Source of the DNA: a virus
Taxonomy: Duplodnaviria > Heunggongvirae > Uroviricota > Caudoviricetes
Strand: one strand, 5' to 3'
Length of the DNA: 64,000 bases
Virus record (IMG/VR): IMGVR_UViG_3300042535_000037
Location: 36,031 to 100,030 of that record
The notes beneath the pieces are model-generated. The model worked only from the letters and a program-made list of their open reading frames with translations, had not been told where the DNA came from and did no database searches. Below are positions 1 through 64,000 of the stretch, one piece after another. Position numbers and translations under genes: made by a program. Every line of letters starts with the position of its first letter. Position 1 is the stretch's first letter.

Positions 1-698
1 TAGAATGCAGCTTTTTCACCAAGCTTATCCCCTCTCTTGATACTCAAAAGCTTATCATATGTAATTGTAAGTATGTCTGGTGCGTACACTTTTCCACTTG
101 TCATACTCTTGTTTTTCTCTTCCATCATTGTTTTGATGTAGCAATTTTCACAAGTGGAAAATGGTAGAATTGGTAAAAAGAATGTATCATATGCAGGAAT
201 TTCACATTCCTTACAATTCTCACTGAGAATAAAAGGTAACTCCTTGAGTGCCTTATTTGATTCTACCTTAGCCTTAGCCTTACTGCAACCCAACTGGTTA
301 GATGGAATCTGTCTTACAATCTTACTATAGTCACCTGTAGAATCCTGATACAATGAAAGTGCTGTTTTAACCGTTGACCTAGCTATTTCATTAGTAGGCT
401 CCACCACCAATATTCTTTTATTCCTAATCATGGCAGAAATAATGGTATTCGTAGTACAACTGGCTCTTGTCGTTTTAACCATGTTGTAGTACATTTCGAT
501 ATTTTCAGTTGTAATATCAATTATCTTGATGCACTTTGTCAGTTGCTCAACATAAACATGATTCTTTCGTTTTTCATTTCTTTCATCAATCACAATTGAT
601 TCTAAATCGTTATAATGCGCAACCAATTTCTTAAAAATTCCTTCGTCTATGGGCTTTTCCTTTAATGTTTCCATAAATTCGTGAATTTTTGGATGCAT
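1..698 (-). CDS. hypothetical protein, N-terminal 232 aa (gene runs off window start); Cys-rich C..C motifs
   Basis: ATG at 698 on minus strand (MHPKIHEFMETLKEK...), open to position 1; not in ORF track because truncated. Confidence 0.5.
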   Translation of the reverse strand, partial: MHPKIHEFMETLKEKPIDEGIFKKLVAHYNDLESIVIDERNEKRKNHVYVEQLTKCIKIIDITTENIEMYYNMVKTTRASCTTNTIISAMIRNKRILVVEPTNEIARSTVKTALSLYQDSTGDYSKIVRQIPSNQLGCSKAKAKVESNKALKELPFILSENCKECEIPAYDTFFLPILPFSTCENCYIKTMMEEKNKSMTSGKVYAPDILTITYDKLLSIKRGDKLGEKAAF

Positions 699-776
699 AG
701 ACAAGCTATTATGCGATTATCTTATTTTAACCTTTTCAAGAAAACTTCATATATATGAAACACCTATTAGTGACCA

Positions 777-941
777 ATGACCAAACTAGATACTTTCATT
801 CTAGAAAATTGCATTAATGTTTGTGGTCTTTACCATTCTCAAGATGATGGTGTTTTGTGCTTGATAGCAGACCACATTGTTGACGAATCAATAATGGAAA
901 AATGTTCTAAACGTCAAGAAGTACTTAGGAGTATATTTTAA
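777..941 (+). CDS. small Cys-containing protein (54 aa)
   Basis: canonical promoter-leader-like sequence catatatatgaaacacctattagtgacc precedes ATG; TAATG overlap with next gene. Confidence 0.4.
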   Translation: MTKLDTFILENCINVCGLYHSQDDGVLCLIADHIVDESIMEKCSKRQEVLRSIF

Positions 942-1357
942 TGATTGAAGTAGATGGAGTTTTTTGGAACTCAAAAGAGGATTACAGGGCAATACCTACC
1001 AACGCCATGTGCAAGAAAAACGGAAACCTAATCATGGGTGCAGGTACAGCACTCCAAGCATCTCAGAGATGTCCAAAACTTGCTAAAAAATTAGGCGAAC
1101 ACGTCAGGATACATGGGAATATTCCAGCATTCATAGAAGAATACATGATAGTCACTTTTCCTTCAAAACAAAATTGGCAATACCCATCTGACATAGACCT
1201 CATAGAAAAATCAGCAAGATACCTTCAGATGGCTCTACCTGAAGACAAGACCTGTGCAATAACAAGAGTAGGATGTGGCAATGGTGCTCTCCATTGGGAT
1301 ACAGTAAAGGCTCGCATTGCTCCAATCCTAGATGACCGTTTCCGTGTATACAAGTGA
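941..1357 (+). CDS. macro domain-like protein (ADP-ribose binding/processing fold)
   Basis: motifs PTNAM..GNLIMGAGTAL and VGCGNGALHW resemble the macro domain N..GGGV and G.G.G loops; SD AGGAG before ATG. Confidence 0.5.
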   Translation: MIEVDGVFWNSKEDYRAIPTNAMCKKNGNLIMGAGTALQASQRCPKLAKKLGEHVRIHGNIPAFIEEYMIVTFPSKQNWQYPSDIDLIEKSARYLQMALPEDKTCAITRVGCGNGALHWDTVKARIAPILDDRFRVYK

Positions 1358-1361
1358 TACC

Positions 1362-2462
1362 ATGAAAATATGCATGATTGCCGATGCCACATCAATCCAC
1401 TCTTTGAGATGGGCTAACTATTTTGTTTCTCAGGGCGATGAGGTTCACATAATCACATATGAATCGCCAAGAAAAGAAGTTCCAAACATAATATTTCATG
1501 TAGTAAAATCCAGATTTGGAAATCTCTATCTTGACTTTATTCCCCGCCAATTGAAAATTTCATCAATAATAGATGAAATAAAACCAGATATATTACATGC
1601 TCATTTCATCTCTAAGTTCGGCTTTCATGCTGCATTCATCAAACACAAACCAAGAATTATGAGTGCTTGGGGTAGTGATATTCTTGTCCTTCCTAACACA
1701 TCAAAATTCATCAAATTTTTCACTAAGCTTTCTCTCAAGAAAGCAGATGTCATCTATGCTGCATCCCACAACCTTCATGACAAGATAATCTCAGAATACA
1801 ACATCCCAGAATACAAAGTCAAATATGTACCAATTGGAGTAGACATAGACCTATTCCATCCTGAAGAAAAGAAATCCGAAACAATAACAATTCTATCTAA
1901 CAGAAACCTCATGCCTGTATACAACATTGAAACTTTTATCAATTCAATTTCATATGTAGTATATCGCCATCCAGAAGTAAGATTCATCATTGCAGGAAGC
2001 GGGATTCTCGAAGATTCACTAAAAGAAAAAGTAATAACTAAAAAGCTATCAGAATACGTTACATTCGTAGGAAATATAGAAAATATAGACATGCCAAAAC
2101 TTCTTAATGAATGCGACATATATGTTTCAACTTCACTATCAGATGGAACTCCAATTTCCATGATGGAAGCTATGGCTTGTGCTAAACCATGCATAATTTC
2201 AAACGTGGGTGGTACTTCCGAATACATAGAAAATGGAGTCAATGGATTTCTATTTACTCCAAAAAATTATGTAGAGTTAGCAGAAAAAATCAAATACTTG
2301 ATAGAAAACCCATCCATTAGAAAAGAATTTGGAGAAAAAGCTCTCATTACTATTCGTGAAAATGGAGACTTCAACAAACTCATGAAAAACATGAGAAAAA
2401 ACTACCATGAAGCAGACCTTCCCCAAAAGCTCAAAGGAACTCAGCTTTATTCAACGATGTGA
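1362..2462 (+). CDS. GT-B fold glycosyltransferase, family GT4-like
   Basis: C-terminal E-X7-E motif region GTPISMMEAMACAKPCIISNVGGTSEYIENGVNGFL; ORF-track ORF 1332..2462, start moved to MKICMI after the upstream stop. Confidence 0.85.
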   Translation: MKICMIADATSIHSLRWANYFVSQGDEVHIITYESPRKEVPNIIFHVVKSRFGNLYLDFIPRQLKISSIIDEIKPDILHAHFISKFGFHAAFIKHKPRIMSAWGSDILVLPNTSKFIKFFTKLSLKKADVIYAASHNLHDKIISEYNIPEYKVKYVPIGVDIDLFHPEEKKSETITILSNRNLMPVYNIETFINSISYVVYRHPEVRFIIAGSGILEDSLKEKVITKKLSEYVTFVGNIENIDMPKLLNECDIYVSTSLSDGTPISMMEAMACAKPCIISNVGGTSEYIENGVNGFLFTPKNYVELAEKIKYLIENPSIRKEFGEKALITIRENGDFNKLMKNMRKNYHEADLPQKLKGTQLYSTM

Positions 2463-2466
2463 AAAA

Positions 2467-2775
2467 ATGCCAACAATACATGAAGCCGTAAAATGTAAAT
2501 TCATGACTCTTACTGAAAGCAAAAAAGTAGTATGTGGTCAAGCTGATAACCCAGAAGAATATTGTAATTATGAAATTTGCTCCCTTTGGGAACAAAAAGA
2601 AGAAGAAAAAGTAATAGACTCTACATGTACACGTCATCTCGTATGTCCTCACTGTGGATATGAAGACGATGACTCTGAACTAGACGATTCAAGTGAAGAA
2701 TATGAGTGTCCAGTATGTGAAAAAACATTTTCATATGAACGCGAATACTCTGTGACTTACACAAGTTGGAAATAA
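2467..2775 (+). CDS. zinc-ribbon protein
   Basis: CPHCG...CPVCE pairs; internal ATG of track ORF 2407..2775 after the GT stop. Confidence 0.5.
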   Translation: MPTIHEAVKCKFMTLTESKKVVCGQADNPEEYCNYEICSLWEQKEEEKVIDSTCTRHLVCPHCGYEDDDSELDDSSEEYECPVCEKTFSYEREYSVTYTSWK

Positions 2776-2812
2776 CCAACACCTTTTTATATATAAAATT
2801 ATATGTGATATC
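2776..2812 (+). promoter_or_regulatory. promoter-leader cassette (TATA-like TTTTTATATATAAAA, GTGATATC before ATG)
   Basis: member of the window-wide conserved motif. Confidence 0.55.
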
Positions 2813-4351
2813 ATGAAAAAATTAGCCTCATTGATTGAATCCATAATGAATACATCTTCAACTAAAGCAAAGGAAGACCTTCTCGTTAACTTCCTGACAG
2901 AAAATCCATCTCCTGAATATATCCGTTTTCTTGGAAGTGAAATACTTCCGAAGCCTCAACCCTTAAACATAGGGAAAGCTACGGTCTCCAAAGCAATAGA
3001 AAACATTTCAGGTGCAAACATGAAAGAGCTCGTAAAAGAACATGGCTCCGTTTCACTTGCTACTTTCTATGCTTTCCAGAAAAGAAACACTAAGCCATCA
3101 ATATTTGATGACCTTCTGGTTCTTCCTTCCAAAAAATCAATTCTTACTATCCTTGAAAATATATCAAAGAATCAAAAGAAAGATGCTCAAGGAGAATACC
3201 TTTTCTCGATATTCAATGGACAAGACCCTCTATCTGCAATGGCTCTATCCCACTTCATTCTTGAAGACCTTCCCGTAGGCTATAACGACAAAATTCTCAT
3301 AAAAGCGATAGCTAGAGTCAAGTCTGTTCCAGCAGACCAAATAGAACTTGCTTACTACTTTACAAATTCATTTACAAAGTTAATGTATCTCAACAGTGTT
3401 GAGATTTCCTCTCTCATTGAAAAAGGTGCAGTAGTAGGATTTCCTGTAAAGTGTATGCTTTGTGAAACTCTCGAAAGTACATCATATCCTTGTATAACTC
3501 AACGTAAACTTGATGGCAACCGCTTACAAATTCACATTATATCTCCATCAATTTTCAAGTTATACTCCCGTAAGCTTGAAGATGTAACGGCATCACATCC
3601 CGACCTAGAGGAAGCAATCTCCAATTTCTACCATGACAATGTAAGTTACATGCCATGTATCTTAGATGGAGAAGCGATAATAGGTGGCAAGTTTACTGAT
3701 GGAATGACCCGCTTCCGAAGAAAACATGACATTGAAGAATATGCAGAAAAATATCCTGTGACTCTAAACATATTCGATATTATTGTGTGCTCAGGAGCCT
3801 CAATTGATAAAATGCCTCTTAGTGGTAGGATTGAATACCTTTCTACCTTCAAATTTAACGAAAGAATTCAACTAGTACCTCACATCATAACTAACTCTGA
3901 AGTGGAAATGCAGGAGTATTTCTCAATATGTCTTGAGGAAGGTTATGAAGGCATTATCATCAAAGACATAGAATCTCAATACCTCTTCAATTCAAGAGGC
4001 TCTGAATGGCAGAAACTCAAGCCTAAGTACACATACGACCTCATCTGCTACGATGGAAACTATGGAACCAACAAAAACAAAGATGTAATGTCATCCATCA
4101 AGCTTAAATCCTCTGAAGGCTTAGAATTAGGTAACTGCGCAGGTATATCCGAAGAGTCGATGCAGGAAATCACCAAGAGAATTGTTTCAGGTCAACAATT
4201 CGTTGTTGAAGTGGAGTTCGAATCTCTACAGAAAGGTGACACCTCTTCGGGTTACTCTCTTCGCTTCCCTCGCTTCATACGCATCCGTGATGACAAACAG
4301 TTATCTGAAGCAAACTCTATGAAAGACATAACCAAATGCAAGAGGACTTAA
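2813..4351 (+). CDS. lig: ATP-dependent DNA ligase
   Basis: motif I KLDGNR, motif IV EGIIIKD, motif V WQKLKPKY; 512 aa. Confidence 0.85.
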   Translation: MKKLASLIESIMNTSSTKAKEDLLVNFLTENPSPEYIRFLGSEILPKPQPLNIGKATVSKAIENISGANMKELVKEHGSVSLATFYAFQKRNTKPSIFDDLLVLPSKKSILTILENISKNQKKDAQGEYLFSIFNGQDPLSAMALSHFILEDLPVGYNDKILIKAIARVKSVPADQIELAYYFTNSFTKLMYLNSVEISSLIEKGAVVGFPVKCMLCETLESTSYPCITQRKLDGNRLQIHIISPSIFKLYSRKLEDVTASHPDLEEAISNFYHDNVSYMPCILDGEAIIGGKFTDGMTRFRRKHDIEEYAEKYPVTLNIFDIIVCSGASIDKMPLSGRIEYLSTFKFNERIQLVPHIITNSEVEMQEYFSICLEEGYEGIIIKDIESQYLFNSRGSEWQKLKPKYTYDLICYDGNYGTNKNKDVMSSIKLKSSEGLELGNCAGISEESMQEITKRIVSGQQFVVEVEFESLQKGDTSSGYSLRFPRFIRIRDDKQLSEANSMKDITKCKRT

Positions 4352-5753: not shown

Positions 5754-6101
5754 TCAACACTGTCTACTTCTAACAGGACAAAAGACTATTTCTTTCATCA
5801 TATACTTGCATTCACAAAAAGAGCATCCACATTTAAAATGTTGGCAAGTCAACTTACTTTCCTCTGAACAGCAAACGCTTTGCATATTCAAAATATCCTG
5901 AGCATATATTGGCTTTATACATCCAATTATCTCTTCAATATTTTCATTTATTCCATACACTAATACTAAAAATGTTTTCATGGACTTTTCAAAAGAAAGT
6001 CCAACAAGGCTCTGGACAAAATACGATGACCTCTTAAAATCATCATACATATTCCTGAACATCTCTTCTTTGAATGACACTTGTGCCATTTGTACCACCA
6101 T
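5754..6101 (-). CDS. Cys-rich zinc-binding protein
   Basis: C-terminal CC..C..C.C.C cluster; canonical promoter on minus strand (tttatatacaataaaacacatt..ATG). Confidence 0.5.
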   Translation of the reverse strand: MVVQMAQVSFKEEMFRNMYDDFKRSSYFVQSLVGLSFEKSMKTFLVLVYGINENIEEIIGCIKPIYAQDILNMQSVCCSEESKLTCQHFKCGCSFCECKYMMKEIVFCPVRSRQC

Positions 6102-6138
6102 TTATATTACAAATGTGTTTTATTGTATATAAATATTA

Positions 6139-6336
6139 TCAATAAACCATTTCAAATCTGTATCTCTTTTTTAGCAATTTTACGCGAGCTCCATTTACTA
6201 AACCCTTTCCTGTATACACTTTCCATTCGTTTTCTGAGACTTGTTCCAACGTTACATTCGAACCATAGAAGAATTTTACAATTGCTCTATGTATCTGCTC
6301 TAATGAGCCTGCACTTGCTATTAACTTTGTTTCCAT
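6139..6336 (-). CDS. hypothetical small protein
   Basis: ORF only. Confidence 0.3.
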   Translation of the reverse strand: METKLIASAGSLEQIHRAIVKFFYGSNVTLEQVSENEWKVYTGKGLVNGARVKLLKKRYRFEMVY

Positions 6337-6424
6337 GTGTAAATACTAATTCTAATGTTATTTGAACTTTCTCATTACTATTTTTCAGATAAACTATATA
6401 TACAAATACATCATTTCCGAATTC

Positions 6425-7117
6425 ATGACTGAATACGTGATTGGAGATATACATGGTCGATACAATGCATTGGAGCAGTGTCTTGAACTATCGCAATTCG
6501 ATGAAAAAAACGACACCCTCATTCTTCTTGGAGACATTGTTGATGGTGGTCGCCAAACATATGAAGTCATAGAACGCTTACTAACGTTGAATACAAAATT
6601 CGTACTAGGAAACCACGATAGCTGGTTCATCAACTACATTAAAAATTCTGTAGAGCTTCCTATATGGACCTCTCAAGGTGGAATCAACACTCTCTATTCA
6701 TATCAGAAAAATAACAAAGGGGTCATTCCTGATTCTCATAAAGAATTCCTTTTTAATCATCTACCCTACTACGAATGTTCAAATGGGAACCCAAATAAAA
6801 TTTCCTACATATTTGTACATGGTGGTTTTGACCCTCTCAAACCAATTCACGAACAACCTATAGAAAAACTTCTTTGGGATAGGAGCCTTCCAGAATTTGC
6901 AAAAAAACAGTTCATACCTAACTACAAAAAAGTCTTCATAGGTCACACCACAACTCAATATCTTAACTCAACAACCCCTGTAAAACTCAACAACCTTATA
7001 ATGATGGATACAGGTGCAGGGTGGAGTGGTCGCCTTTCCATCATGAACATTCGTACTGAAGAATATTGGCAATCCAAAAAGCAAAAACCTTCCCGCTCAA
7101 ATGGTGGATACTGGTAA
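6425..7117 (+). CDS. calcineurin-like metallophosphatase (lambda-phosphatase/ApaH-like)
   Basis: GDIHGRY, GDIVDGG, GNHD motifs; TATA-like box ~30 nt upstream. Confidence 0.8.
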   Translation: MTEYVIGDIHGRYNALEQCLELSQFDEKNDTLILLGDIVDGGRQTYEVIERLLTLNTKFVLGNHDSWFINYIKNSVELPIWTSQGGINTLYSYQKNNKGVIPDSHKEFLFNHLPYYECSNGNPNKISYIFVHGGFDPLKPIHEQPIEKLLWDRSLPEFAKKQFIPNYKKVFIGHTTTQYLNSTTPVKLNNLIMMDTGAGWSGRLSIMNIRTEEYWQSKKQKPSRSNGGYW

Positions 7118-7149
7118 TCTTTAAATATCAAGCCAACCTATTTTCTCAC

Positions 7150-7437
7150 ATGTCAACAAGAATAACTTCAAAAAACTGCGAAGAACAGGTAGCCCGCCTC
7201 GCTCGTATTATGGGTAGACCTGTTCATGCATACAACAGAATGCCGGATGGTAGCTACAGAGCCAACACAGGTGCTCTCAAACTTCATTCATATCAAGGAT
7301 ACTACAGAGTTGTAGAAATTACTGGTGAAGGTGGGGGAGAAAGTGACTTCTTTGGCTCAACTGGTCTGAAAGCAGGCGACTTCTACACAGCTATGAATTG
7401 GGTAATGGAAGCAATTCGTGTTAACAGGAAGGGATAA
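7150..7437 (+). CDS. hypothetical protein, tandem paralog A (GYYR..EGGGxSD..GLKxGDF motif)
   Basis: shares motif block with the next gene. Confidence 0.5.
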   Translation: MSTRITSKNCEEQVARLARIMGRPVHAYNRMPDGSYRANTGALKLHSYQGYYRVVEITGEGGGESDFFGSTGLKAGDFYTAMNWVMEAIRVNRKG

Positions 7438-7733: not shown

Positions 7734-8159
7734 AAAAAACCAACTCTTCTGATAACGATTTTTATTTACTATACAAACACTATTTTCAAAATTACATAAA
7801 TTAAAGTTTGGTAAAAAATAGTATAGAAAAATATCCAAATATATTTAACGCCTTTTTAGTACATTCAAATATAAATTTCTAAATAGCCATTATTTTCACT
7901 TTAGAGCCTATCTTAGATGTCAAGTTATAAGTTTAAGAATTCGATATCTATTTTCAGCCAAGACGTTCTCAGCTCGTTTTGGAGCCTCATAGAAGCCACT
8001 TCTGACTCAGACTTACACCTTTTCATACGAAAGTACAATTAATATTACAAACATATATTACACTACAATTGATTAAATTATCAAATAAATAATCATCAAA
8101 ATTCAATACAGGTACTTTCACAAACCCTTAAATACTAGAAACACGTTTCATCTATCAAG

Positions 8160-8402
8160 TTGATTATTATGGAAGACAAATTAAATCTTGTATCTGAAAT
8201 TTTGGAAAAGCAAATTGCTAGTAACCTAAAGAAACTTGACAAAGCAATGAAGGAGAACGTCTGGAAAGCCACCAGAGTAAACACTGAAGAGTTAATCCGT
8301 CAACTCATGGTCACTAAACAACTCATTGCTCATTACGAAAGTGGAGAAATGGAAGACGATATCGACTCTAACCCAGAGATTGCTTCCCTCTTGGAAGACT
8401 AA
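8160..8402 (+). CDS. small acidic protein
   Basis: ORF with SD-like GTTGATT leader. Confidence 0.45.
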   Translation: MIIMEDKLNLVSEILEKQIASNLKKLDKAMKENVWKATRVNTEELIRQLMVTKQLIAHYESGEMEDDIDSNPEIASLLED

Positions 8403-8443
8403 CCTTCCATCACCTTTTTATACATAAATAACCGTATATATAC

Positions 8444-8539
8444 ATGGAAATTAATATGAGTATAGAAACAATTGTACCATTAATTAATGGAATTGTAACC
8501 TTTGTAATAGGCATTTCATTAATAATAATGATGTTGTGA
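8444..8539 (+). CDS. 31-aa hydrophobic peptide
   Basis: directly after canonical promoter at 8401-8443. Confidence 0.35.
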   Translation: MEINMSIETIVPLINGIVTFVIGISLIIMML

Positions 8540-8746: not shown

Positions 8747-8785
8747 CCTTCCATCACCTTTTTATACATAAATATCATTCTATTT

Positions 8786-9046: not shown

Positions 9047-9085
9047 CCTTTATATATACAAAACACCATTACTATATTGCTGGCA
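9047..9085 (+). promoter_or_regulatory. promoter cassette upstream of tRNA
   Basis: cctttatatatacaaaacaccattactatat. Confidence 0.45.
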
Positions 9086-16824: not shown

Positions 16825-16837
16825 ACCAACACTTTTT

Positions 16838-54955: not shown

Positions 54956-55037
54956 GTTACAGGCAATGAGTCTCGCTTCAGACTCTTCTACTAACTTTTT
55001 AGTTAACTTTATATATCATCATTTCTTATCTATTCAC

Positions 55038-56084: not shown

Positions 56085-56150
56085 ACATTACTATAATCCC
56101 TTCTCATATATAACCATTACTTTTTTATACCCAAACCACTATTATTAATC

Positions 56151-56510
56151 ATGGACCCCGAAACAAAACAAGCTCTAACAGCAGAACTCCTTATTGGTCT
56201 TAACATTTACGAAATCACCGTCATCCAAAACTCTCAAGTCTGCTTCTCGGACCTCGTTACTCTCTTAAAACCTGACCTAACTCGTCATCAAATTAACCTC
56301 ACGATAGACCGTATGTTTGATATGAGAATGATTTACGGTGAATGGGAAATATGTAAAAAAGAAGGTGGATGGATGCGATGTCTTTATCTATCAAGGATAT
56401 TCAAAGATTACTTCGCTCAAATCTACTCCAAAATTAAACCACTCTCTCCTTCAGCAAGTCAAACCTCTGATGACCCCATTGTTCCAATTGCTCATTGCGG
56501 TAGAATTTAA
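56151..56510 (+). CDS. hypothetical protein
   Basis: canonical promoter. Confidence 0.5.
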   Translation: MDPETKQALTAELLIGLNIYEITVIQNSQVCFSDLVTLLKPDLTRHQINLTIDRMFDMRMIYGEWEICKKEGGWMRCLYLSRIFKDYFAQIYSKIKPLSPSASQTSDDPIVPIAHCGRI

Positions 56511-56652: not shown

Positions 56653-56723
56653 ATTTATTAATTCACTCCATCCTATAAAAACCTATCAAAATCTTTTTAT
56701 ATATAAAATTCCATCACTCATTT

Positions 56724-57020
56724 ATGCAATTGAATTTACATGGACCCGAAGGCTACAATCTATACAAGCGTAGCCTAGAACTAGAACGTGAACACATCTC
56801 AAAACACATCATCTCAGACCTCTTCTCATTCATGATGGCTTGGAGTATTAGCGGTCTCCTTCTTTATGCCGCTCTCCCATCTCAAACAACTTTCGTGGGT
56901 CTCTTTCTCTCACTAACCCTAATAATAGCCCTCTCCCACACCTACTACATCCTCGATAAAGGTCACACTCACTACAAAACCCACCAGTACTACCTTAACC
57001 AGTACAAGAAAAATCAATGA
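56724..57020 (+). CDS. membrane protein
   Basis: promoter; TM helices. Confidence 0.5.
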   Translation: MQLNLHGPEGYNLYKRSLELEREHISKHIISDLFSFMMAWSISGLLLYAALPSQTTFVGLFLSLTLIIALSHTYYILDKGHTHYKTHQYYLNQYKKNQ

Positions 57021-57274: not shown

Positions 57275-57423
57275 TCTTCGGAACCCACCTCTCCGAACAA
57301 TCAGCACTTTTCATCTATGATGACAAAATCATCAGCACAGAACACACTTACATCGACAATAAACCCGCCACCATCGTTAAAACCACCGACTAATTTTTAT
57401 ACCATCACATCTTTTTTCTTTTC

Positions 57424-57663
57424 ATGACAATGGCAAAAGAGTCAACCCTCAAGGGTTACAAATCAAAAATAAAATGGACCACCGACAAAACACTCCCGAT
57501 GATGCAAGGAATGGCTATCAACGAGGTCATTAAAAGATACAACATCCCTGCTAAATCATGGGGTTATTCCGGCTCCATCATTGGTGTCGAAACTTCCAAA
57601 CAATACCTCTTCTGGAAAGACCTAGGTTCCCACTTAGAATTCAAGGGCATTCTTGACAAATGA
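57424..57663 (+). CDS. hypothetical small protein
   Basis: promoter at 57390. Confidence 0.5.
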   Translation: MTMAKESTLKGYKSKIKWTTDKTLPMMQGMAINEVIKRYNIPAKSWGYSGSIIGVETSKQYLFWKDLGSHLEFKGILDK

Positions 57664-57709
57664 CCCATTACTTTTTTATACATTAAAGTCCTTTTATCAT
57701 TGTGATTAC

Positions 57710-59257
57710 ATGGAATACTCAGAATATCAACTCAAAATTTTCGATTTCATAAAAAATAAAAATGGCAATGCAATTATAGAAGCAGTCGCGGGGTCTGGAA
57801 AAACTACAACTGTAGTAACTTCTTTAGAAATGATTCCACCCACAAAAAGAGCAGTCTTCTTAGCATTCAATGTTCACATAGCAGAGCATCTCAAGACAAA
57901 GGTTCCAAAAGGTGTAGATGTTATGACTCTCCATTCTCTAGGTAGACGCATCCTTGTCCAAAACAAATTCATAACCTTTGATAACAAAGCCGACTCATTA
58001 AAAGTATTCAGAATAGTCGATGCAGTACTTCAATCAAAAAATACTTCCCAAGGTATTCCTTTTCAATCTCAATTTATAAGAAAGGAAGACAAAGCCAATC
58101 TTAGAAAATTCAAATCATCAATTGTTAAAATAGTTGAAAAACTAAAGAGTAGTATGATTCTACCCAATTCTCCATCTTTCTCTAAAGAAGTAATGCATTT
58201 AATCGATTTCTATGAAATAGAACTAGCAGGTTTTCTAAACAAGAATCCGACATCAATGCAGTTCTCAGAAGAAGAATTAATTTCCATAGTAAAAAACACA
58301 TATCTCCAATCATCCCTACAGAAATCCATAATCAATTTTGATGACATGATTTTCATGCCATCTCTCTATAATCTTAAACCATCAAAACTTTATGATTACG
58401 TTTTCGTAGATGAAGTCCAAGACTTAAATAAGTGTCAATCCCACTTACTCAGAAACATCCTCTCTACCACAGGTCGCATAATTGTAGTAGGCGACACAAA
58501 TCAAGCCATCATGGGCTTCGCAGGAGCCAACACAGAGTCTATGAAGTACCTCTCTGAAATGTTCTCTGCTCAATCACTCGAATTATCCATATGCTATAGA
58601 TGTCCAAAATCCCACATCTCTCTAGCACAAACCATAGTTCCTAGAATTAAAGCCCGCGAAAATGCACCCGAAGGCATTATAGAAGACATAAATACATCTC
58701 AAGCGGTACATCTAGCCCAAGATAAAGACCTTATAATTTGTCGTAATAACTCACCTCTAATTTCCATGTGCTTAAAGTTCATCTCATCTGGTAGAAAAGC
58801 TAACATCAGAGGAACTGACCTAGCTACAACCCTTATCTCTCTCATTGAAGACTTCAACGTTCGTAATATTGAAGACCTTCGTGAATCCCTCATAATTTGG
58901 AAAAAGAAAGAGGTAGAAAATTGTAAAGATTTCAACATAAATCCTCAACCAATTATTGACCGTTATGAATGTATTATGTGCCTCATAAATGAGTCAGGAG
59001 CCTCTACATCAATTGAATTAATCCAAACCATTAAACATATCTTCTCAGATGAGAATGGCTCAGGAGTTACCTTATCTTCAATCCATAAAGCTAAAGGACT
59101 TGAAGCAAACTCTGTCTTCATCCTTCAACCCCACTTAATGCCATCTATCTATGCAACAAAAGATTGGGAAATGGAGCAAGAGAAAAACCTTATGTATGTA
59201 GCATACACTCGTTCAAAGAACGCTCTTTATTTCATCCATTCGGAGAAAATACAATGA
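57710..59257 (+). CDS. UvrD/Rep/PcrA-like superfamily 1 DNA helicase
   Basis: AVAGSGKTTT, VFVDEVQDLN, VVGDTNQAI, YVAYTRSKN; canonical promoter. Confidence 0.85.
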   Translation: MEYSEYQLKIFDFIKNKNGNAIIEAVAGSGKTTTVVTSLEMIPPTKRAVFLAFNVHIAEHLKTKVPKGVDVMTLHSLGRRILVQNKFITFDNKADSLKVFRIVDAVLQSKNTSQGIPFQSQFIRKEDKANLRKFKSSIVKIVEKLKSSMILPNSPSFSKEVMHLIDFYEIELAGFLNKNPTSMQFSEEELISIVKNTYLQSSLQKSIINFDDMIFMPSLYNLKPSKLYDYVFVDEVQDLNKCQSHLLRNILSTTGRIIVVGDTNQAIMGFAGANTESMKYLSEMFSAQSLELSICYRCPKSHISLAQTIVPRIKARENAPEGIIEDINTSQAVHLAQDKDLIICRNNSPLISMCLKFISSGRKANIRGTDLATTLISLIEDFNVRNIEDLRESLIIWKKKEVENCKDFNINPQPIIDRYECIMCLINESGASTSIELIQTIKHIFSDENGSGVTLSSIHKAKGLEANSVFILQPHLMPSIYATKDWEMEQEKNLMYVAYTRSKNALYFIHSEKIQ

Positions 59258-60371: not shown

Positions 60372-60943
60372 TTCAAATAGACTACAAGAACATTCATCCC
60401 CTTTCCGACTCTGAACTCGAAGAAATGTTCTCACAACCTCACACTATAGAACTTCTTCACACAAGCGCATCTATGATTTCCGACATGCACCCACAAACAA
60501 AAGAAACCATCATCACTCAATTCAAAAAATCCTTCCAATTCATCTGGAATGACCTATCCAAGTACACAACCACTTTCCACGATGAAAAACTATTAGGCGA
60601 CTTCATTACCTTCACCGTTCGCTATAGTTGCCTCAAGCTCGTCTTAGCATTCACTCTCAACTCTCCTGAAATTCCTCTTCCAATCATCATCCCTAAAGAA
60701 ATAGTGAAAAAAGCAATAACAAAAGTAGAACAACCAAAATATTGTAACTACGATGTAAATGTCATAATAGACATGTTCACTTCAGACATAACATCTGTAT
60801 CTCAAGACATTTCAAACAACAACCTAACAATAGAAGCATTATATCTAGAAATCGTCATGAAATTCATCGAAGACTACTCAAACTTTAAATTCAGCATTAT
60901 AACTTGTAGAGGAACGCAATTTAACGCGCAACTCTTCTCATAA
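60368..60943 (+). CDS. hypothetical protein
   Basis: ATGA coupling. Confidence 0.45.
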   Translation: MIQIDYKNIHPLSDSELEEMFSQPHTIELLHTSASMISDMHPQTKETIITQFKKSFQFIWNDLSKYTTTFHDEKLLGDFITFTVRYSCLKLVLAFTLNSPEIPLPIIIPKEIVKKAITKVEQPKYCNYDVNVIIDMFTSDITSVSQDISNNNLTIEALYLEIVMKFIEDYSNFKFSIITCRGTQFNAQLFS

Positions 60944-60975
60944 CCTTTTTATACATTCAATTCATTTTTTATTAC

Positions 60976-61491
60976 ATGAAAATTAACAACTCCAATATTT
61001 CTCAATCTGACTTCATAAAAGTACTAAAGGACCATAAATCTAAAAACTTATTTCTCTACCTAAGTTTCAATCCTGTAGAAGTCACAGTCAAAGAAATAAA
61101 TGGAAACGTTGTTAAAAAATACATTATCCAAGAGCCTGTATCCGACTCATTTTTCTCAAAGTTAGAATCTACCTGCAAAAACAAAACCACATTAACTCTT
61201 CAAGAATTTACAACACTCTATGACCAAACTCCAAAAAACTATTCCATAGGGAACCTTGACCCTAAAGCCAATTTCTATCCATCAGTAATAAAAGAATACA
61301 TGCTAATGCCAGTTTTCAACTTAACTCCTGAAGAAAAACAACATGAAAGAGCCTTACACCATTTCGTTAAAATCCAGAGCTCTAACTTTCCACAATTAAC
61401 TCAAACATACGAAAATCTTCTCTACAAAAGCTCAACAGACAAGCAAAAAGAAACAATTCTCTTCAGAGTAGAAGTCACCTCTATCACATAA
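60976..61491 (+). CDS. hypothetical protein
   Basis: canonical promoter. Confidence 0.5.
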   Translation: MKINNSNISQSDFIKVLKDHKSKNLFLYLSFNPVEVTVKEINGNVVKKYIIQEPVSDSFFSKLESTCKNKTTLTLQEFTTLYDQTPKNYSIGNLDPKANFYPSVIKEYMLMPVFNLTPEEKQHERALHHFVKIQSSNFPQLTQTYENLLYKSSTDKQKETILFRVEVTSIT

Positions 61492-61523
61492 CATTTTTAT
61501 ACTCATTTTTACAATCTATATTC

Positions 61524-61685
61524 ATGGATAAACAACAATTAATAATGTATCCAATTAAAGCAGCTTCAAGTGTAAAAATGATAACAGACCCACACGAAAA
61601 GTACGAAAGTGATAAAAAAGCAGGCAAAACAACCTTCTGGCAACGCCTAAAATATGAATACATTCCATACCTCTACTCCCTATAA
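61524..61685 (+). CDS. 53-aa hypothetical protein
   Basis: promoter at 61490. Confidence 0.35.
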   Translation: MDKQQLIMYPIKAASSVKMITDPHEKYESDKKAGKTTFWQRLKYEYIPYLYSL

Positions 61686-61716
61686 CTTTTTATACCACTT
61701 CATCCTTCTATCAATC

Positions 61717-61953
61717 ATGACAATAAAAAATTGGAAGAAAACTTCCGACAGACCTAACTTTGAAGCATGGCACAACAAAGAATTAGGTATCCTCATGACC
61801 CTAAACAAACAAATGCCCTTTGCCGGAAAACACAAAGAATATCTTGTTCAAGTCCGTTTCGAAAACTCCACAAGACCCATAGATAACGAATACACAAGAA
61901 AAGAAGATGCTCAAAAATTCATCTCCACCTTCCAAAACCACAACATTGAGTAA
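61717..61953 (+). CDS. hypothetical protein
   Basis: promoter at 61680. Confidence 0.5.
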   Translation: MTIKNWKKTSDRPNFEAWHNKELGILMTLNKQMPFAGKHKEYLVQVRFENSTRPIDNEYTRKEDAQKFISTFQNHNIE

Positions 61954-62010
61954 CTTACCCACTGGTAAGCTACCACTATCTTTTTATACATAAAACACCA
62001 TTACTTATCT

Positions 62011-62217
62011 ATGCAACAAATAATATACAAATTACGTTCGGCTAGAATGATGACCCTCTTAGCAGTCTCAGTATTCATAGGACTCCTTTGCGACATTGAA
62101 TACTACGCCAAGCAAACAACAAAAAAGTCTGCTACCCTCATGGCATACCCTATCGCAGCCATCTTCACGCTTTTCTTCATGCTCTCCCTTCCTATATCTA
62201 TAAATACCAAGAAGTGA
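62011..62217 (+). CDS. small membrane protein
   Basis: canonical promoter. Confidence 0.5.
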   Translation: MQQIIYKLRSARMMTLLAVSVFIGLLCDIEYYAKQTTKKSATLMAYPIAAIFTLFFMLSLPISINTKK

Positions 62218-62407: not shown

Positions 62408-62448
62408 CCTTCCACAACTTTTTTATACATAAAACTCCATTACTTACT

Positions 62449-62748
62449 ATGCAATTTAAAATAGGTATCCATATATACCCAAATCTTCCACCTTCTATAA
62501 TTACCATAGTAAACAATCAAATTATGGATAATTTTCTATCTAAATTCGAAACACTAAATCCACACCTAATAGTAGAAGCATCCTTCAAATTTACAGATGT
62601 ATTCACTGGATTTTACGTATTCACGGTAGACATACAACCAATTCATGAAACACCAATTAATTCTATGTCAATTAACATCACTAAAGGCGTAAATAGAGCC
62701 TTAGCATCATTCAACTCATCAAACTACGAAGTAGTAAAAATAGCTTAA
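62449..62748 (+). CDS. hypothetical protein
   Basis: canonical promoter. Confidence 0.5.
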   Translation: MQFKIGIHIYPNLPPSIITIVNNQIMDNFLSKFETLNPHLIVEASFKFTDVFTGFYVFTVDIQPIHETPINSMSINITKGVNRALASFNSSNYEVVKIA

Positions 62749-62749
62749 C

Positions 62750-62890
62750 ATGTACAAAATTACCATCCTTAACTCAGAGGGTAGACAAATCAATGTCTAC
62801 TCATGTGAACATCTTCTCGAAGACGAAATCACATACACATTGAAAAAAACAACACCACTATTTCAATCCCAAAATCCCTCTTTATCGTAG
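62750..62890 (+). CDS. 46-aa hypothetical protein
   Basis: ORF. Confidence 0.3.
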   Translation: MYKITILNSEGRQINVYSCEHLLEDEITYTLKKTTPLFQSQNPSLS

Positions 62891-62951
62891 AAATAGAAAA
62901 AATTGAGTAAATTTTATATACTATCCCAACTATTACTTATTTTGTGATTAT

Positions 62952-63374
62952 ATGTTACCCCAAGAATTTGAAAAACTAACACACTTTCAACACAACTTTG
63001 ACCCATCCCTTATTCAAAATCGTGCAGACCGCACCCTTTTATATGGCTACGACTTCGAACGCAATTCTATTCATCTTTTCATGTACAAAGGAGAAGTCCA
63101 TCTCTTACGCTACTCACATGAGGTAGAAACCATCATAGATGGTGTCAGGTTCATCAGCAACTACATGAAACATATTCACATAGACAAACCAATTTCATAT
63201 GATGAAATAGTTCCTTCAAAGCGTCTTTATCCAGAATCATGTGACTTCGAGACCTGCAATCTCATAATCACTGCCGGAGAATCCCTTTCATTCACAAAGT
63301 TCGACCTAGACCGCATGAGCATGTCATCAAACAAAAAGTTCCAAGGATGTTTACCATCATGCCTGAACTACTAA
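62952..63374 (+). CDS. hypothetical protein
   Basis: canonical promoter. Confidence 0.5.
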   Translation: MLPQEFEKLTHFQHNFDPSLIQNRADRTLLYGYDFERNSIHLFMYKGEVHLLRYSHEVETIIDGVRFISNYMKHIHIDKPISYDEIVPSKRLYPESCDFETCNLIITAGESLSFTKFDLDRMSMSSNKKFQGCLPSCLNY

Positions 63375-63682
63375 AATCCCTTCCAGATAACACTCCCATC
63401 TCTTTAGGTGAAATTCGCATAGTCAAGGACATCTCACCTGAAGGAACAGTCCTAATTTACGAACAAGACATGCTGATGTACTCCATAGTCTACGAAGATT
63501 TCAAACCCATTCTTTGTTCAATGGAAACCTACGAAGAAAAGAATGGCTACAGGGTCATCAAAAAATACTCAGAATTCAGCCCATCCAACCCAGACTTCAA
63601 AAACATGGTCTCAACTCTTGAAAACATCATCAAGAACGCCCTCATCATCATCAAGGACACCATCTCAAAAATAGAGGTCTAA
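63347..63682 (+). CDS. hypothetical protein
   Basis: ORF. Confidence 0.45.
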   Translation: MFTIMPELLKSLPDNTPISLGEIRIVKDISPEGTVLIYEQDMLMYSIVYEDFKPILCSMETYEEKNGYRVIKKYSEFSPSNPDFKNMVSTLENIIKNALIIIKDTISKIEV

Positions 63683-63684
63683 CA

Positions 63685-64000
63685 ATGTACATACGCACAG
63701 AAAAACAAGAATCAGTCTCTCAATCCAAAGGCAAGAAGATAACTACAATTACAGAAATGGATGTTCACTCATGCGACATCTGTAAAGATGAAGTCTTCAC
63801 TATCTACAATTGCAAACTTTGTAACAAAGAGCTCTGTGGAAACTGCATCAAGTACAACTATTGCCCTGAGTGCTTCTCTTCAAATTCAATTGCAGCAGAG
63901 GTTATCTCCTTCATAAACACCCGCGAAGTCCAATGTGGTTACTCCTGTCGTGATGAAAAGTTCAAAGACTACAAACTTGAATTTGACGAATACAAATACT
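63685..64000 (+). CDS. Cys-rich zinc-finger protein, N-terminal part (runs off window end)
   Basis: CDICKD...CKLCNKELCGNC...CPEC; open to 64000. Confidence 0.45.
   Translation, partial: MYIRTEKQESVSQSKGKKITTITEMDVHSCDICKDEVFTIYNCKLCNKELCGNCIKYNYCPECFSSNSIAAEVISFINTREVQCGYSCRDEKFKDYKLEFDEYKY

Follow-up and report, generated by a model that had tools for sequence, protein, structure and literature searches.

Repeated promoters of this kind are already known from other archaeal viruses, and the intergenic-repeat promoters of halovirus HF2 and the early-gene consensus of rudiviruses are close precedents for a cassette that recurs in front of many genes. Here, we describe such a cassette in an uncultivated archaeal virus-like element of at least 183 kb that encodes PolB and whose host is probably a member of the Methanosarcinaceae. 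The window, a stretch of 64 kb of this element, carries about 60 copies of a compact, degenerate motif composed of BRE, TATA box and -10 element, and the spacing within the copies agrees with the archaeal TATA-to-start rule.

To count the copies, we collected all matches to a position weight matrix (PWM) scoring at least 12 bits and took dinucleotide shuffles of the sequence as the chance level. This yielded 59 sites (48 on the plus strand and 11 on the minus strand), against 0.6-2.5 in the shuffles. The string TTTTTATA was likewise enriched on the plus strand (31 occurrences against a shuffle mean of 3.2), with 6 against 7.6 on the minus strand. A start codon opening an ORF lies at a fixed distance from 53 of the 59 sites, which bears out an earlier sequence-only reading that had placed the cassette before more than 35 starts, including the minus-strand genes 5754-6101, 41974-42696 and 42812-42955, each of which has a copy. 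The same reading called the copies near-identical over some 45 nt, which overstates their likeness: the 28-mer that it quoted is found with at most 3 mismatches at just 4 sites (a single mismatch at 61972..62013) and with at most 8 at 18, and GGTGATTCAAA occurs only 4 times. We therefore rejected a near-identical 45-mer. The copies at 8406..8446 and 8750..8791 are identical from -14 to +16. All copies are listed in the table below.

Table. Cassettes, orphan copies and RNA genes in the window. ATG offsets are counted from the T that opens the TATA box. LL, predicted leaderless; SD, Shine-Dalgarno class.
Span	Strand	TATA box	Bits	ATG	Downstream gene or feature	ATTAYT at +19	Class and remarks
737..779	+	746-753	16.1	+31	gene 777-941 (54 aa)		LL
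2775..2815	+	2784-2791	20.8	+29	gene 2813-4351 (512 aa, DNA ligase)		LL
6087..6142	-	6126-6133	21.0	+32 (6101) or +44 (6089), in frame	gene 5754-6101		class ambiguous; GGTGGT between the ATGs
6386..6427	+	6395-6402	20.3	+30	gene 6425-7117 (230 aa, metallophosphatase)		LL
7111..7152	+	7120-7127	16.8	+30	gene 7150-7437 (95 aa)		LL
8118..8171	+	8127-8134	18.3	+42	gene 8169-8402 (77 aa)		~12-nt leader without clear SD
8406..8446	+	8415-8422	24.0	+29	small ORF 8444-8539 (31 aa)		LL
8750..8791	+	8759-8766	28.9	+30	gene 8789-9046 (85 aa)		LL
9040..9081	+	9049-9056	30.8		tRNA-Asn	yes	RNA gene
9142..9216	+				tRNA-Asn(GTT)		ARAGORN; Rfam RF00005, 61.2 bits
9229..9270	+	9238-9245	21.4	+30	gene 9268-10560 (430 aa, transglutaminase-like)		LL
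10987..11028	-	11012-11019	23.8	+30	gene 10543-10989 (148 aa)		LL
11475..11516	+	11484-11491	16.5	+30	gene 11514-12734 (406 aa)		LL
12687..12728	-	12712-12719	14.1			yes	orphan, antisense within gene 11514-12734
12761..12804	+	12770-12777	21.1	+32	gene 12802-16824 (1340 aa, disaggregatase-like)		LL
16825..16866	+	16834-16841	18.9		ORF-less RNA segment containing tRNA-like gene		RNA gene
16945..17092	+				tRNA-like gene		sequence and fold
17086..17127	+	17095-17102	29.0	+30	gene 17125-17460 (111 aa, Zn-ribbon)	yes	LL
17669..17721	+	17678-17685	29.0	+41	gene 17719-18252 (177 aa)		SD GGTGATTCAAAATG
20490..20530	+	20499-20506	23.1	+29	small ORF 20528-20641 (37 aa)	yes	LL
20634..20683	+	20643-20650	30.6	+38	gene 20681-21169 (162 aa)	yes	SD
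22718..22759	+	22727-22734	13.2	+30	ORF 22757-23095 (112 aa)		LL
23088..23129	+	23097-23104	19.9	+30	ORF 23127-23273 (48 aa)		LL; all-pyrimidine spacer
23270..23321	+	23279-23286	21.4	+40	gene 23319-24281 (320 aa)	yes	SD GGTGATTCAAATG
24350..24401	+	24359-24366	19.6	+40	gene 24399-25238 (279 aa)		SD
25237..25285	+	25246-25253	29.2	+37	gene 25283-26053 (256 aa, thymidylate-synthase-like)		SD
28516..28565	+	28525-28532	21.7	+38	gene 28563-29204 (213 aa)		SD
30443..30484	+	30452-30459	22.2	+30	gene 30482-30826 (114 aa)		LL
31042..31083	-	31067-31074	21.4	+30	gene 30823-31044 (73 aa)	yes	LL
32668..32717	+	32677-32684	12.2	GTG +29, ATG +32 or ATG +38	gene ending 34694 (~660 aa)		weakest copy; start ambiguous
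37141..37183	-	37167-37174	17.6	+31	gene 36910-37143 (77 aa)		LL; back-to-back with plus copy at 37180
37180..37230	+	37189-37196	21.2	+39	gene 37228-40749 (1173 aa, DUF2341)		SD (GAGGA)
40748..40788	+	40757-40764	24.4	+29	gene 40786-40974 (62 aa, Zn-ribbon)		LL
41794..41905	-						two tandem orphan cassette-like copies; repeat families D1-D3; under PWM threshold
42694..42758	-	42742-42749	13.3	+53	gene 41974-42696 (240 aa)	yes	longer leader, AAGTGATTACATG
42771..42812	-	42796-42803	20.5			yes	orphan
42953..43006	-	42990-42997	16.0	+42	ORF 42812-42955 (47 aa)	yes	SD (GGAGA)
43010..43051	+	43019-43026	18.5		ORF-less structured RNA	yes	RNA gene
43049..43335	+				predicted 287-nt structured RNA		flanked by a cassette on either side; fold statistics
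43327..43368	+	43336-43343	29.7	+30	gene 43366-43977 (203 aa)		LL
44765..44806	+	44774-44781	27.7	+30	gene 44804-45004 (66 aa)		LL
45990..46031	+	45999-46006	20.7	+30	gene 46029-46625 (198 aa)		LL
46710..46750	+	46719-46726	16.6	+29	gene 46748-46930 (60 aa)		LL
46923..46964	+	46932-46939	17.1	+30	ORF 46962-47084 (40 aa)		LL
48260..48310	+	48269-48276	30.2	+39	gene 48308-48919 (203 aa)	yes	SD AGTGATTACATG
48907..48958	+	48916-48923	19.1	+40	gene 48956-49240 (94 aa)	yes	SD GGTGATTCAAATG
49898..49945	+	49907-49914	23.0	+36	gene 49943-50686 (247 aa)	yes	SD-like (GGTAC)
51091..51141	+	51100-51107	24.6	+39	gene 51139-51930 (263 aa)		SD
52486..52526	+	52495-52502 (TTTTTATC)	17.8	+29	small ORF 52524-52658 (44 aa)		LL
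53414..53455	+	53423-53430	27.1	+30	gene 53453-53698 (81 aa)		LL; all-pyrimidine spacer
53706..53758	+	53715-53722	29.2	+41	gene 53756-54037 (93 aa)		SD GGTGATTCAAAATG
54632..54673	+	54641-54648	22.7	+30	gene 54671-54955 (94 aa)		LL; all-pyrimidine spacer
54999..55040	+	55008-55015	17.9	+30	gene 55038-55292 (84 aa)		LL
56113..56153	+	56122-56129	28.4	+29	gene 56151-56510 (119 aa)	yes	LL
56685..56726	+	56694-56701	27.6	+30	gene 56724-57020 (98 aa)		LL
57385..57426	+	57394-57401	21.6	+30	gene 57424-57663 (79 aa)		LL
57664..57712	+	57673-57680	29.1	+37	gene 57710-59257 (515 aa, UvrD-like helicase)		SD GTGATTACATG
60937..60978	+	60946-60953	30.2	+30	gene 60976-61491 (171 aa)		LL
61485..61526	+	61494-61501	14.3	+30	ORF 61524-61685 (53 aa)		LL
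61678..61719	+	61687-61694	21.2	+30	gene 61717-61953 (78 aa)		LL
61972..62013	+	61981-61988	29.9	+30	gene 62011-62217 (68 aa)	yes	LL
62411..62451	+	62420-62427	31.0	+29	gene 62449-62748 (99 aa)	yes	LL
62904..62954	+	62913-62920	21.5	+39	gene 62952-63374 (140 aa)	yes	SD GTGATTATATG

The consensus has a BRE-like CCA..A(-3)NC, followed by the TATA core TTTWTATA and a C, and continues into a spacer that is nearly devoid of G and has a conserved C at +17 and T at +20. Conservation beyond the TATA box, which had been pointed out before, was evident among 68 sites chosen by the 8-nt core alone: C+17 was present in 46 (p=1.5e-16), T+20 in 48, A-3 in 51 and C+8 in 37. Similarly, ATTAYT begins at exactly +19 in 18 of the 59 matrix sites and at any other offset in at most 2. 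Position ~+30 holds either the ATG itself (35 genes) or (G)GTGAT with the ATG 7-14 nt downstream (17 genes). Against the earlier estimate of a TATA box ~35-40 nt before the ATG, the distance is 36-44 nt at the 17 sites of the Shine-Dalgarno class (with 53 nt at one more site), and at the majority of 35 sites it is 29-32 nt and exactly 30 in 24. The assignment of GGTGAT as a Shine-Dalgarno sequence agrees with its placement, 13 of the 41 plus-strand GTGAT lying 5-15 nt ahead of a called start, and the stop-start couplings reported alongside it are present (5 ATGA and 2 TAATG).

Several cassettes precede RNA genes. The tRNA-Asn begins ~63 nt past the transcript start predicted for its cassette, and 8 nt beyond its end comes the T5 run (9224) of the following TATA core. 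The tRNA-like gene has a 7-bp acceptor stem, a D arm, a long variable arm and a GGTTCAATTCC T arm, with 75 nt separating the ACACA and TGTGT strands of its anticodon stem; ARAGORN calls it only once 16984-17047 is deleted, a search against Rfam was negative, and its end lies 3 nt ahead of the T6 run in the following TATA box. Downstream of the cassette at 43010..43051, the only ORF has 9 codons, and the RNA predicted there folds with an MFE of -82.2 kcal/mol (z -4.67, with none of 200 shuffles equally stable) and had no Rfam match at E<=1; the T6 run belonging to the following TATA box lies at its 3' end.

The sequence-only reading had also reported orphan copies and cassettes ahead of ORF-less GC-rich segments. 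Both orphans and ORF-less segments exist, the latter being RNA segments; the GC-richer stretch 50687-51083, in contrast, encodes protein (ORF 50673-51083, starting with TTG) and lacks a cassette of its own. The tandem orphans lie 61 nt apart as minus-strand TTTATATA-N11-ATTACTTATG within an ORF-less gap of 400 nt and 25% GC, and the orphan at 42771..42812 is 54 nt upstream of the copy with its TATA box at 42749, an arrangement of tandem promoters.

Could the conserved CCATTACTCAT segment instead be a shared, transcribed 5' leader used for translational control, as had been suggested? Counted from the TATA start, the segment covers +17..+27; with respect to the predicted start site this corresponds to -13..-3, so that it would be untranscribed. 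Because it lies upstream of that site, we regard it as promoter DNA, located where archaeal promoters have their promoter-proximal element, and favor a promoter over a leader. Moreover, three cassettes serve RNA genes, one of them a tRNA, and this speaks against a leader for translational control as well; the leader explanation is not supported. Nor is a virus polymerase of distinct specificity, since the canonical TATA box and BRE A-3 point to host TBP and TFB. A dedicated virus-encoded specificity factor may still read the C-13/ATTAYT element; a search of the 64-kb window for the TBP, TFB and HTH families found none.

Overall, the cassettes are best read as strong BRE/TATA/PPE/Inr promoters used by the host TBP, TFB and RNA polymerase, which supports the initial proposal of archaeal-type promoters with very short or absent leaders. 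The transcript would start on the ATG itself or begin with a very short Shine-Dalgarno leader, and the 35 genes with an ATG at ~+30 are predicted to be leaderless.

The motif TTTTTATA occurs 31 times on the plus strand of the window against 3.2 expected from dinucleotide shuffles, and six times on the minus strand, where shuffles gave 7.6. The sequence-only reading had described the copies of a promoter-leader unit of about 45 nt as near-identical, which overstated their likeness: the 28-mer it quoted matches four sites at up to three mismatches and 18 at up to eight. Because exact or near-exact matching of this 28-mer recovered only these 4-18 sites, we replaced it with an iterated matrix and with tests on sites selected by their TATA core alone. 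The matrix, iterated from seeds with the start-codon columns blanked, yielded 59 sites at a threshold of at least 12 bits (48 on the plus strand, 11 on the minus strand), whereas shuffled sequence gave 0.6 at this threshold and 2.5 when it was lowered to 9 bits. Within 53 nt downstream of 54 of these sites lies a start codon that opens an ORF on the same strand; three of the remaining five precede RNA genes, again on the same strand, and two are orphans. The proposed enrichment upstream of ORFs thus stood against shuffled sequence, and the three minus-strand genes singled out by that reading each carry a matrix site. Overall, cassettes occur about once per 1.1 kb and precede about half of the genes in the window.

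To avoid circularity in describing the motif, we chose 68 plus-strand sites on the 8-nt TATA core only and then tested the flanking columns, with index 0 at the first T of the core. The TATA box reads TTTWTATA, with positions 5-7 (ATA) invariant in all sites but one and T at position 1 in 57 of 59. Directly upstream lies a BRE-like element, CCA..A(-3)NC(-1). Its A at index -3, the base preferred by TFB (PMC11065993), is present in 51 of the 68 core-only sites (p=2e-11) and C at -7 in 34; C at -1 is also significant, and G at -6, reported for the Sulfolobus BRE, is not enriched in these sites. The base after the TATA box is C or T by consensus, with C at +8 in 37/68. Further downstream, C at +17 (-13 from the inferred start) occurs in 46/68 sites (p=1.5e-16) and T at +20 (-10, the position of the promoter proximal element, PPE) in 48/68 (p=1.6e-12), and G at +32 forms another significant column. 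The same column test on 28 minus-strand core sites, most of which are chance sites, gave no signal.

The region between the TATA box and the start is patterned as well. The spacer from +8 to +29 is nearly free of G and leads into a pyrimidine-purine initiator at about +29/+30. The hexamer ATTAYT begins at exactly +19 (extending to +24, that is, -11 to -6 from the inferred start) in 18 of 59 sites, and at no other offset within 120 nt in more than two. Ten sites are all-pyrimidine from -15 to -1, nine of them in the leaderless class described below. Allowing one mismatch, ATTAYT is found in 14 of the 22 non-leaderless and RNA-gene cassettes against 10 of the 37 others (Fisher p=0.007). These two flavours of spacer are intermixed throughout the window and do not group into modules. 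Average-linkage clustering of the TATA-to-start spacers produced no classes, and explicit features were used instead. The motif contains no dyad symmetry or inverted repeat.

Start codons are phased to the TATA core. Among 59 core-only plus-strand sites, ATG lies at offset 30 in 21 and at offset 29 in six, and any other offset accounts for zero to five. Two architectures can be distinguished. In the leaderless class (n=35), ATG follows the first T of the core by 29-32 nt (exactly 30 in 24 of 35), and the base at -1 is C or T in 32. In the Shine-Dalgarno (SD) class (n=17), a (G)GTGAT or weaker GGAG-type motif begins at 28-32 and ATG follows at 36-44. Indeed, (G)GTGAT begins at index 28-32, the ATG position of the leaderless class, in 16 of 18 SD-class sites defined by regular expression. 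Two single sites have a 23-nt leader and a 12-nt leader without a clear SD, respectively. The placement of the TATA box 35-40 nt upstream of the ATG, as had been claimed from sequence inspection, therefore describes the smaller SD class and not the majority, the 35 sites at 29-32. The predicted leaderless share amounts to 35 of the 54 cassette-driven protein genes (65%); several of these "leaderless" ORFs encode only 31-48 aa and, being very short, may not be genes.

The sequences at SD-class starts are stereotyped. On the plus strand, GGTGATTCAAA occurs in four copies and GTGATT..ATG in 11, all preceding starts. In 17 cassettes, and in many internal genes as well, GGTGAT, GTGAT or GGAG precedes the ATG by 7-12 nt; this putative SD would pair with the end of archaeal 16S rRNA, ...GAUCACCUCC-3'. 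GGAGG is absent from the plus strand. Genes without a cassette are operon-internal, and their starts usually lie 8-12 nt downstream of GGTGA, GGAG or GAGG or overlap the stop codon before them. Stop-start couplings, which had also been reported, were found at five ATGA and two TAATG junctions.

In most sites, 22 nt separate the end of the TATA box from the ATG or GGTGAT. This distance fits Methanolobus psychrophilus (Methanosarcinaceae), whose mapped start sites are 19-22 nt away from BRE/TATA (PMC5378194). It also fits the arrangement general in archaea, where the TATA box is located at about -27 and the BRE at about -33, with an A/T-rich PPE near -10 and a pyrimidine at -1 (PMC5316973). Taken with this published spacing, the 22-nt gap places the inferred +1 at the A of ATG or at the first base of the SD, the latter giving a leader of 7-14 nt. 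The spacing thus suggests that transcripts of the 35 predicted leaderless genes would begin at the AUG itself. With BRE and TATA at archaeal spacing and (G)GTGAT in the SD position, the archaeal promoter and SD interpretation of the sequence-only reading is probably right. In cellular archaea, leaderless genes are mainly single or first in their operons, and SD motifs occur only on leadered mRNAs (PMC5316973), the same division as in the window. M. psychrophilus, however, has about 15% leaderless mRNAs and a median UTR of 55 nt (PMC5378194), so the 65% among the window's cassettes would be atypical if the host belongs to the Methanosarcinaceae.

Cassettes also precede three RNA genes: a tRNA-Asn, a tRNA-like gene and a 287-nt RNA predicted to be structured. 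Their presence before the tRNA and two ORF-less RNA segments argues that the element acts at transcription. The earlier suggestion that the unit fronts GC-rich segments lacking ORFs was borne out by these RNA genes, but the GC-richer stretch at 50687-51083 proved coding. The tRNA-like gene has a D arm, a long variable arm (CCTT-TGCA-AAGG) and a canonical T arm (CTTGGTTCAATTCCAAG). In its anticodon stem, ACACA and TGTGT are separated by 75 nt instead of the expected 7-nt loop, and this stretch is predicted to form a long hairpin and contains a C-box-like AUGAUGG. ARAGORN calls a tRNA-Ala(GGC) once 16984-17047 is deleted, although the G3:U70 pair is absent; neither ARAGORN nor Rfam names the intact gene. 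The 287-nt segment folds far better than its shuffles and includes a predicted 12-bp long-range helix (ACAGGAAACGCC / GGCGTTTCCTGT). It has no Rfam match at E<=1 and receives no name from ARAGORN, and it is probably a new structured RNA. Directly 3' of the tRNA-Asn, at 9224-9245 on the plus strand, two TATA cores (TTTTTATAC at 9224 and 9238) stand 14 nt apart. Only the one at 9238 is phased to an ATG, at 9268; the core at 9224 may serve as a tRNA terminator or a second start.

Signals are tightly packed around the cassettes. In 11 plus-strand cassettes the stop codon of the gene before ends 1-3 nt short of the TATA box, and in three it overlaps the box, so that the "TAAC" of the originally proposed consensus is often a stop codon within the BRE. 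Intergenic positions account for 66 of the 123 T5 runs, and 28 are the TATA box itself. In all three RNA genes, the T run of the next TATA box lies within 3-8 nt downstream. Together, the stop-codon packing, the intergenic T5 runs and the T runs behind the RNA genes point to a dual role, in which the T5-6 run of the TATA box probably doubles as an oligo-T terminator of the upstream unit. The depletion of T5 runs inside plus-strand genes is modest once base composition is allowed for, and this count therefore gives little independent support to a terminator.

Genes and RNA features of the window discussed in the text, with their relation to the cassette
Feature	Coordinates	Strand	Cassette	Remarks
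Paralogue pair	7150-7437 / 7439-7693		on 7150-7437 only	
tRNA-like gene	16945-17092	+	precedes gene	7-bp acceptor stem ATCCCAC/GTGGGAT; discriminator A
Paralogous genes	19765-20148, 55707-56084	-	none	shared motifs HMTP..YL.ES.K.H and QEGR.RV.AV
HNH endonuclease	22042-22704			
Paralogue pair	23319-24281 / 24399-25238		on each	predicted membrane/secreted, Ig-like
Kinase-phosphatase-RNA ligase (Pnkp-Rnl1) fusion	34689-36860	-	none	
Predicted structured RNA	43049-43335	+	between two cassettes	287 nt, ORF-less; MFE -82.2 kcal/mol, z -4.67
Paralogue pair	49943-50686 / 51139-51930		on each	predicted membrane/secreted, Ig-like
TTG-start ORF	50673-51083	+	in operon of cassette 49907	Ser/Thr/Gly-rich; C-terminal membrane anchor

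Several loci stand out from this pattern. The three adjacent paralogue pairs suggest local gene duplication, with the promoter included in two cases. The two minus-strand paralogues, which run against the plus-strand flow, may be selfish or homing-type insertions. Thousands of proteins encoded in gut and Firmicute genomes and on a 182-kb jumbo-phage contig share 43-46% identity with the Pnkp-Rnl1 fusion, which points to transfer between mobile elements of bacteria and those of archaea. At 41573-43360 lies a control-like region with a 400-nt gap of 25% GC, inside which two tandem orphan copies of the cassette occur 61 nt apart on the minus strand (41794-41905). Four further ATTACTTAT-type copies, on both strands, surround three small minus-strand ORFs. 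The whole region is a possible origin or a site of divergent regulation.

The window has a GC content of about 36%, genes nearly all on the plus strand and a negative GC skew throughout. Among the Pfam matches are an ATP-dependent DNA ligase, a UvrD-like helicase, an HNH endonuclease, two RNA ligases (one of them fused with polynucleotide kinase-phosphatase), a thymidylate-synthase-like protein, a dCMP deaminase, an SPFH protein, a glycosyltransferase and a 1340-aa disaggregatase/beta-helix protein. Most remaining proteins belong to no family, and PHROGs returned no match for ten large unknown ones. An identical copy of the DNA ligase is encoded on a 183,084-bp JGI contig; its best non-self matches are archaeal ligases at about 30% identity, and the search returned nothing between its own 100% copy and 31% identity. 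The disaggregatase-like protein (12802-16824, plus strand) is 40-43% identical, over about half its length, to surface proteins of Methanomethylovorans and Methanosarcina; it is a candidate depolymerase or receptor-binding protein. Taken together, the archaeal ligase matches and the disaggregatase homologues point to a large unclassified archaeal virus-like element, probably with a host among the Methanosarcinaceae, the disaggregatase-like protein being the one clue to the host.

A Logan contig that is 100% identical to the first 8.4 kb of the window extends 7.2 kb further upstream. This adjoining sequence (L002, positions 1-7188) is a replication block that encodes a family B DNA polymerase, an XPD-like helicase, an AAA+ protein and a 1061-aa protein on the minus strand. 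It holds one good cassette in 7.2 kb, compared with about one per 1.1 kb in the window, and cassette density thus varies by genome region.

Searches for relatives returned little. Neither megablast nor tblastn matched any of the phage records, scans of viral contigs seeded with proteins, including two other than the ligase, found no relatives, and exact-protein look-ups for the 3' end of the window and two further proteins were likewise negative. Motif scans gave no match in viral or metagenome contigs and one chance match in genome contigs (a Porphyromonadaceae MAG), and a looser TATA+ATTAYT pattern gave single chance matches only. A Borg or mini-Borg identity, suggested by the low GC, the one-strand coding and a possible Methanoperedens link, was not adopted: tandem repeats are almost absent, and the best matches of the disaggregatase-like protein are in Methanosarcinaceae. 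The Borg and jumbo-ECE papers do not discuss promoters. The Firmicute jumbo-phage contig (182 kb; L124/L125), found via Pnkp-Rnl homologues and carrying a 45%-identical gene, was rejected as a relative since it uses bacterial expression signals (AGGAGG and TTGACA/TATAAT). As a negative control, its coding strand had no cassette, and its other strand had one weak matrix match.

We also examined 48 kb of a Methanomethylovorans-like chromosome (L122 and L123) as a candidate host. It contains 44 TATA-core sites, one of which exceeds a matrix score of 9 bits, and at least one has ATG at +30 (L122 site 3006, gene 3036-3329). Neither ATTAYT at +19 nor a G-free spacer occurs at any of the 44, so the extended pattern does not appear generic for this candidate host, as far as a small sample and an uncertain host can tell.

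We consider it likely that the cassettes are compact, near-consensus archaeal core promoters read by host TBP, TFB and RNA polymerase, an interpretation that builds on the enrichment, orientation, phasing and column conservation observed here. Host TBP and TFB would be recruited to the BRE and TATA box, and host RNA polymerase would initiate some 30 nt downstream of the box's first T. In 35 genes, +1 would be the A of ATG, producing an mRNA translated without a leader; in 17, it would be the first base of (G)GTGAT, leaving a leader of 7-14 nt that scarcely extends beyond a 5'-terminal SD; and in three cases the transcript would be the product of an RNA gene. Genes without cassettes would ride in operons, relying on their own SD or on stop-to-start coupling, and the upstream unit would end in the T5-6 run that belongs to the next TATA box. 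The lack of dyad symmetry, together with the lack of TBP, TFB or HTH families in the window, favours host basal factors. A bacterial sigma-70 reading was rejected given the missing -35 partner, the archaeal homologues and the phasing to ATG.

The main rival to this interpretation is a protein of the element, such as a TFB/TFE-like initiation factor, an activator or a repressor, that reads C(-13)/ATTAYT(-11..-6), and perhaps the all-pyrimidine spacer, on top of a host-type TATA box. Such a factor could define promoter classes, for example early and late, and redirect the host polymerase. We regard this as rather unlikely, although C-13 and ATTAYT show much less variation than a generic A/T-rich PPE does, the two spacer flavours differ in their association with leaderless and non-leaderless cassettes, and class I/II repeats of halovirus HF2 and rudivirus early motifs have been proposed to bind viral regulators (PMC8707807, PMC11065993). 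The absence of the extended pattern from the 48 kb of candidate-host chromosome adds to this, and host basal factors alone may thus be insufficient to explain the whole motif, as far as a small sample and a host call from one protein can tell. On the other hand, the dyad expected for the usual dimeric archaeal regulators is missing, no TBP, TFB, TFE, HTH or RHH family was found among the window's proteins (about one third of the element), the flavours are interspersed rather than modular, and the -10 region is a basal PPE position anyway (PMC5316973). In its boldest form, C(-13)/ATTAYT would be a virus-specific "-10-like" element through which an element-encoded initiation factor reprograms the host polymerase to make mostly leaderless or 5'-SD mRNAs in a Methanosarcinaceae virus, a proposal that we hold to be distinctly improbable. 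If true, it would amount to a sigma-like takeover, so far undescribed for archaeal viruses, in a host lineage with mostly long 5' UTRs.

The other explanations fit the data less well. A shared 5' leader RNA for translational control, as had been envisaged for CCATTACTCAT, has an analogue in the start-associated sequences of cluster K mycobacteriophages, and the short transcribed part of SD-class cassettes is indeed stereotyped beyond the SD core. Under the TATA spacing rule (PMC5378194), however, everything up to +29 would stay untranscribed, and CCATTACTCAT, at +17..+27 (-13..-3), would be promoter DNA in the PPE position; moreover, the 35 predicted leaderless genes have no room for a leader, and cassettes also stand before tRNA and other RNA genes. 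We therefore judge a leader function very improbable as the main role of the unit. Still less credible is a dispersed repeat, such as a mobile intergenic cassette or module boundary, spread by duplication or recombination and resembling a promoter only secondarily. The copies at 8406-8446 and 8750-8791 match at every base between index -14 and +16, beyond the constrained columns, four copies share CCTTCCA..ACC upstream of their TATA box, and the tandem copies 61 nt apart would also fit, but agreement among most copies is confined to specific columns, with variation in between, which indicates selection on function rather than recent copying; their orientation is strictly that of the downstream gene, they are locked in phase with its ATG, and terminal inverted repeats and target duplications are absent. 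A polymerase encoded by the element itself, single-subunit or multisubunit, with a long specific promoter in the manner of T7, N4 or giant viruses, would be a great surprise. A near-consensus promoter before every second gene does recall T7 class promoters and the mimivirus AAAATTGA, and the roughly 71 kb covered are part of an element of at least 183 kb; yet the conserved core is a canonical archaeal TATA box with a BRE A-3 at textbook distance, neither the 64-kb window nor the genes called in the 7 kb upstream include an RNA polymerase family, and archaeal viruses are not known to encode an RNA polymerase (PMC5569661). The idea of a dedicated polymerase, raised from the sequence at the outset, accordingly lost ground.

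Compared with known systems, the cassette shares with the archaeal core promoter, including the methanogen "box A" TTTATATA, an 8-bp A/T TATA box whose centre lies some 26-27 nt upstream of the inferred start, the BRE A-3, a T-rich element at about -10, a pyrimidine at -1 and a purine at +1, as well as predicted ATG-only leaderless first genes and putative GGDGRD-type SDs on leadered and internal genes (PMC5316973). It differs from cellular promoters in being far less degenerate, and in its near-fixed C-13, the ATTAYT present in a third of copies and the G-free spacer. HF2 carries nine intergenic repeats, of class I (56-58 bp) and class II (29 bp), which were shown to be promoters and hold BRE, TATA, PPE and INR together with extra conserved blocks (PMC8707807). 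The likeness extends to gene-oriented, virus-specific intergenic repeats in a large archaeal virus, conservation beyond the basal elements, and a neighbourhood with PolB, helicase and tRNA/RNA repair genes. HF2 repeats, however, are longer and closer to identical, drive transcripts of 0.5-35 kb where the approximately 59 window cassettes mostly serve one to three genes, and fall into classes that track genome arms and infection time; their activity and start sites were measured, while those of the window cassettes are predicted from sequence.

Similarly, rudiviruses and many crenarchaeal viruses have a virus-specific consensus around a near-identical BRE/TATA before early genes (PMC11065993). 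Their core, TTTAWATA, is nearly the same as that of the window, with virus-specific flanks; it too is common to many single genes, mostly small ORFans, and can be found by motif searches upstream of starts. The rudivirus motif marks only a subset of genes (early or anti-defence, often at genome termini) and may include inverted-repeat repressor sites, whereas the window cassette lacks an inverted repeat and precedes about half of all genes, including those for DNA ligase, a helicase and the 1340-aa surface-protein homologue, and the RNA genes. Giant-virus promoter motifs and T7-type promoters are read by virus-encoded polymerases or factors. They likewise place one short motif before many genes with very short 5' UTRs, but the core in the window is a host-type TATA/BRE, and no polymerase gene was seen there or in the 7 kb upstream. 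The window cassette is thus of the same kind as the HF2 and rudivirus promoters, set apart by its density, its single-base phasing to ATG, its two start architectures and its fixed C-13/ATTAYT.

For an element made up mostly of ORFans, the cassette provides base-precise gene starts and transcription units, with at least five starts corrected here, and it flags three RNA genes that annotation would overlook. The approximately 59 natural variants of a strong archaeal promoter, in two start architectures, are usable in methanogen genetics. They also illustrate an extreme packing of signals, with stop codons in the BRE and a likely terminator in the T run that forms part of the TATA box. Knowledge of archaeal transcription is unchanged by these results unless the -13/-10 element needs a viral factor. 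If the host call holds, this virus would use leaderless expression in a clade in which it is the minority mode.
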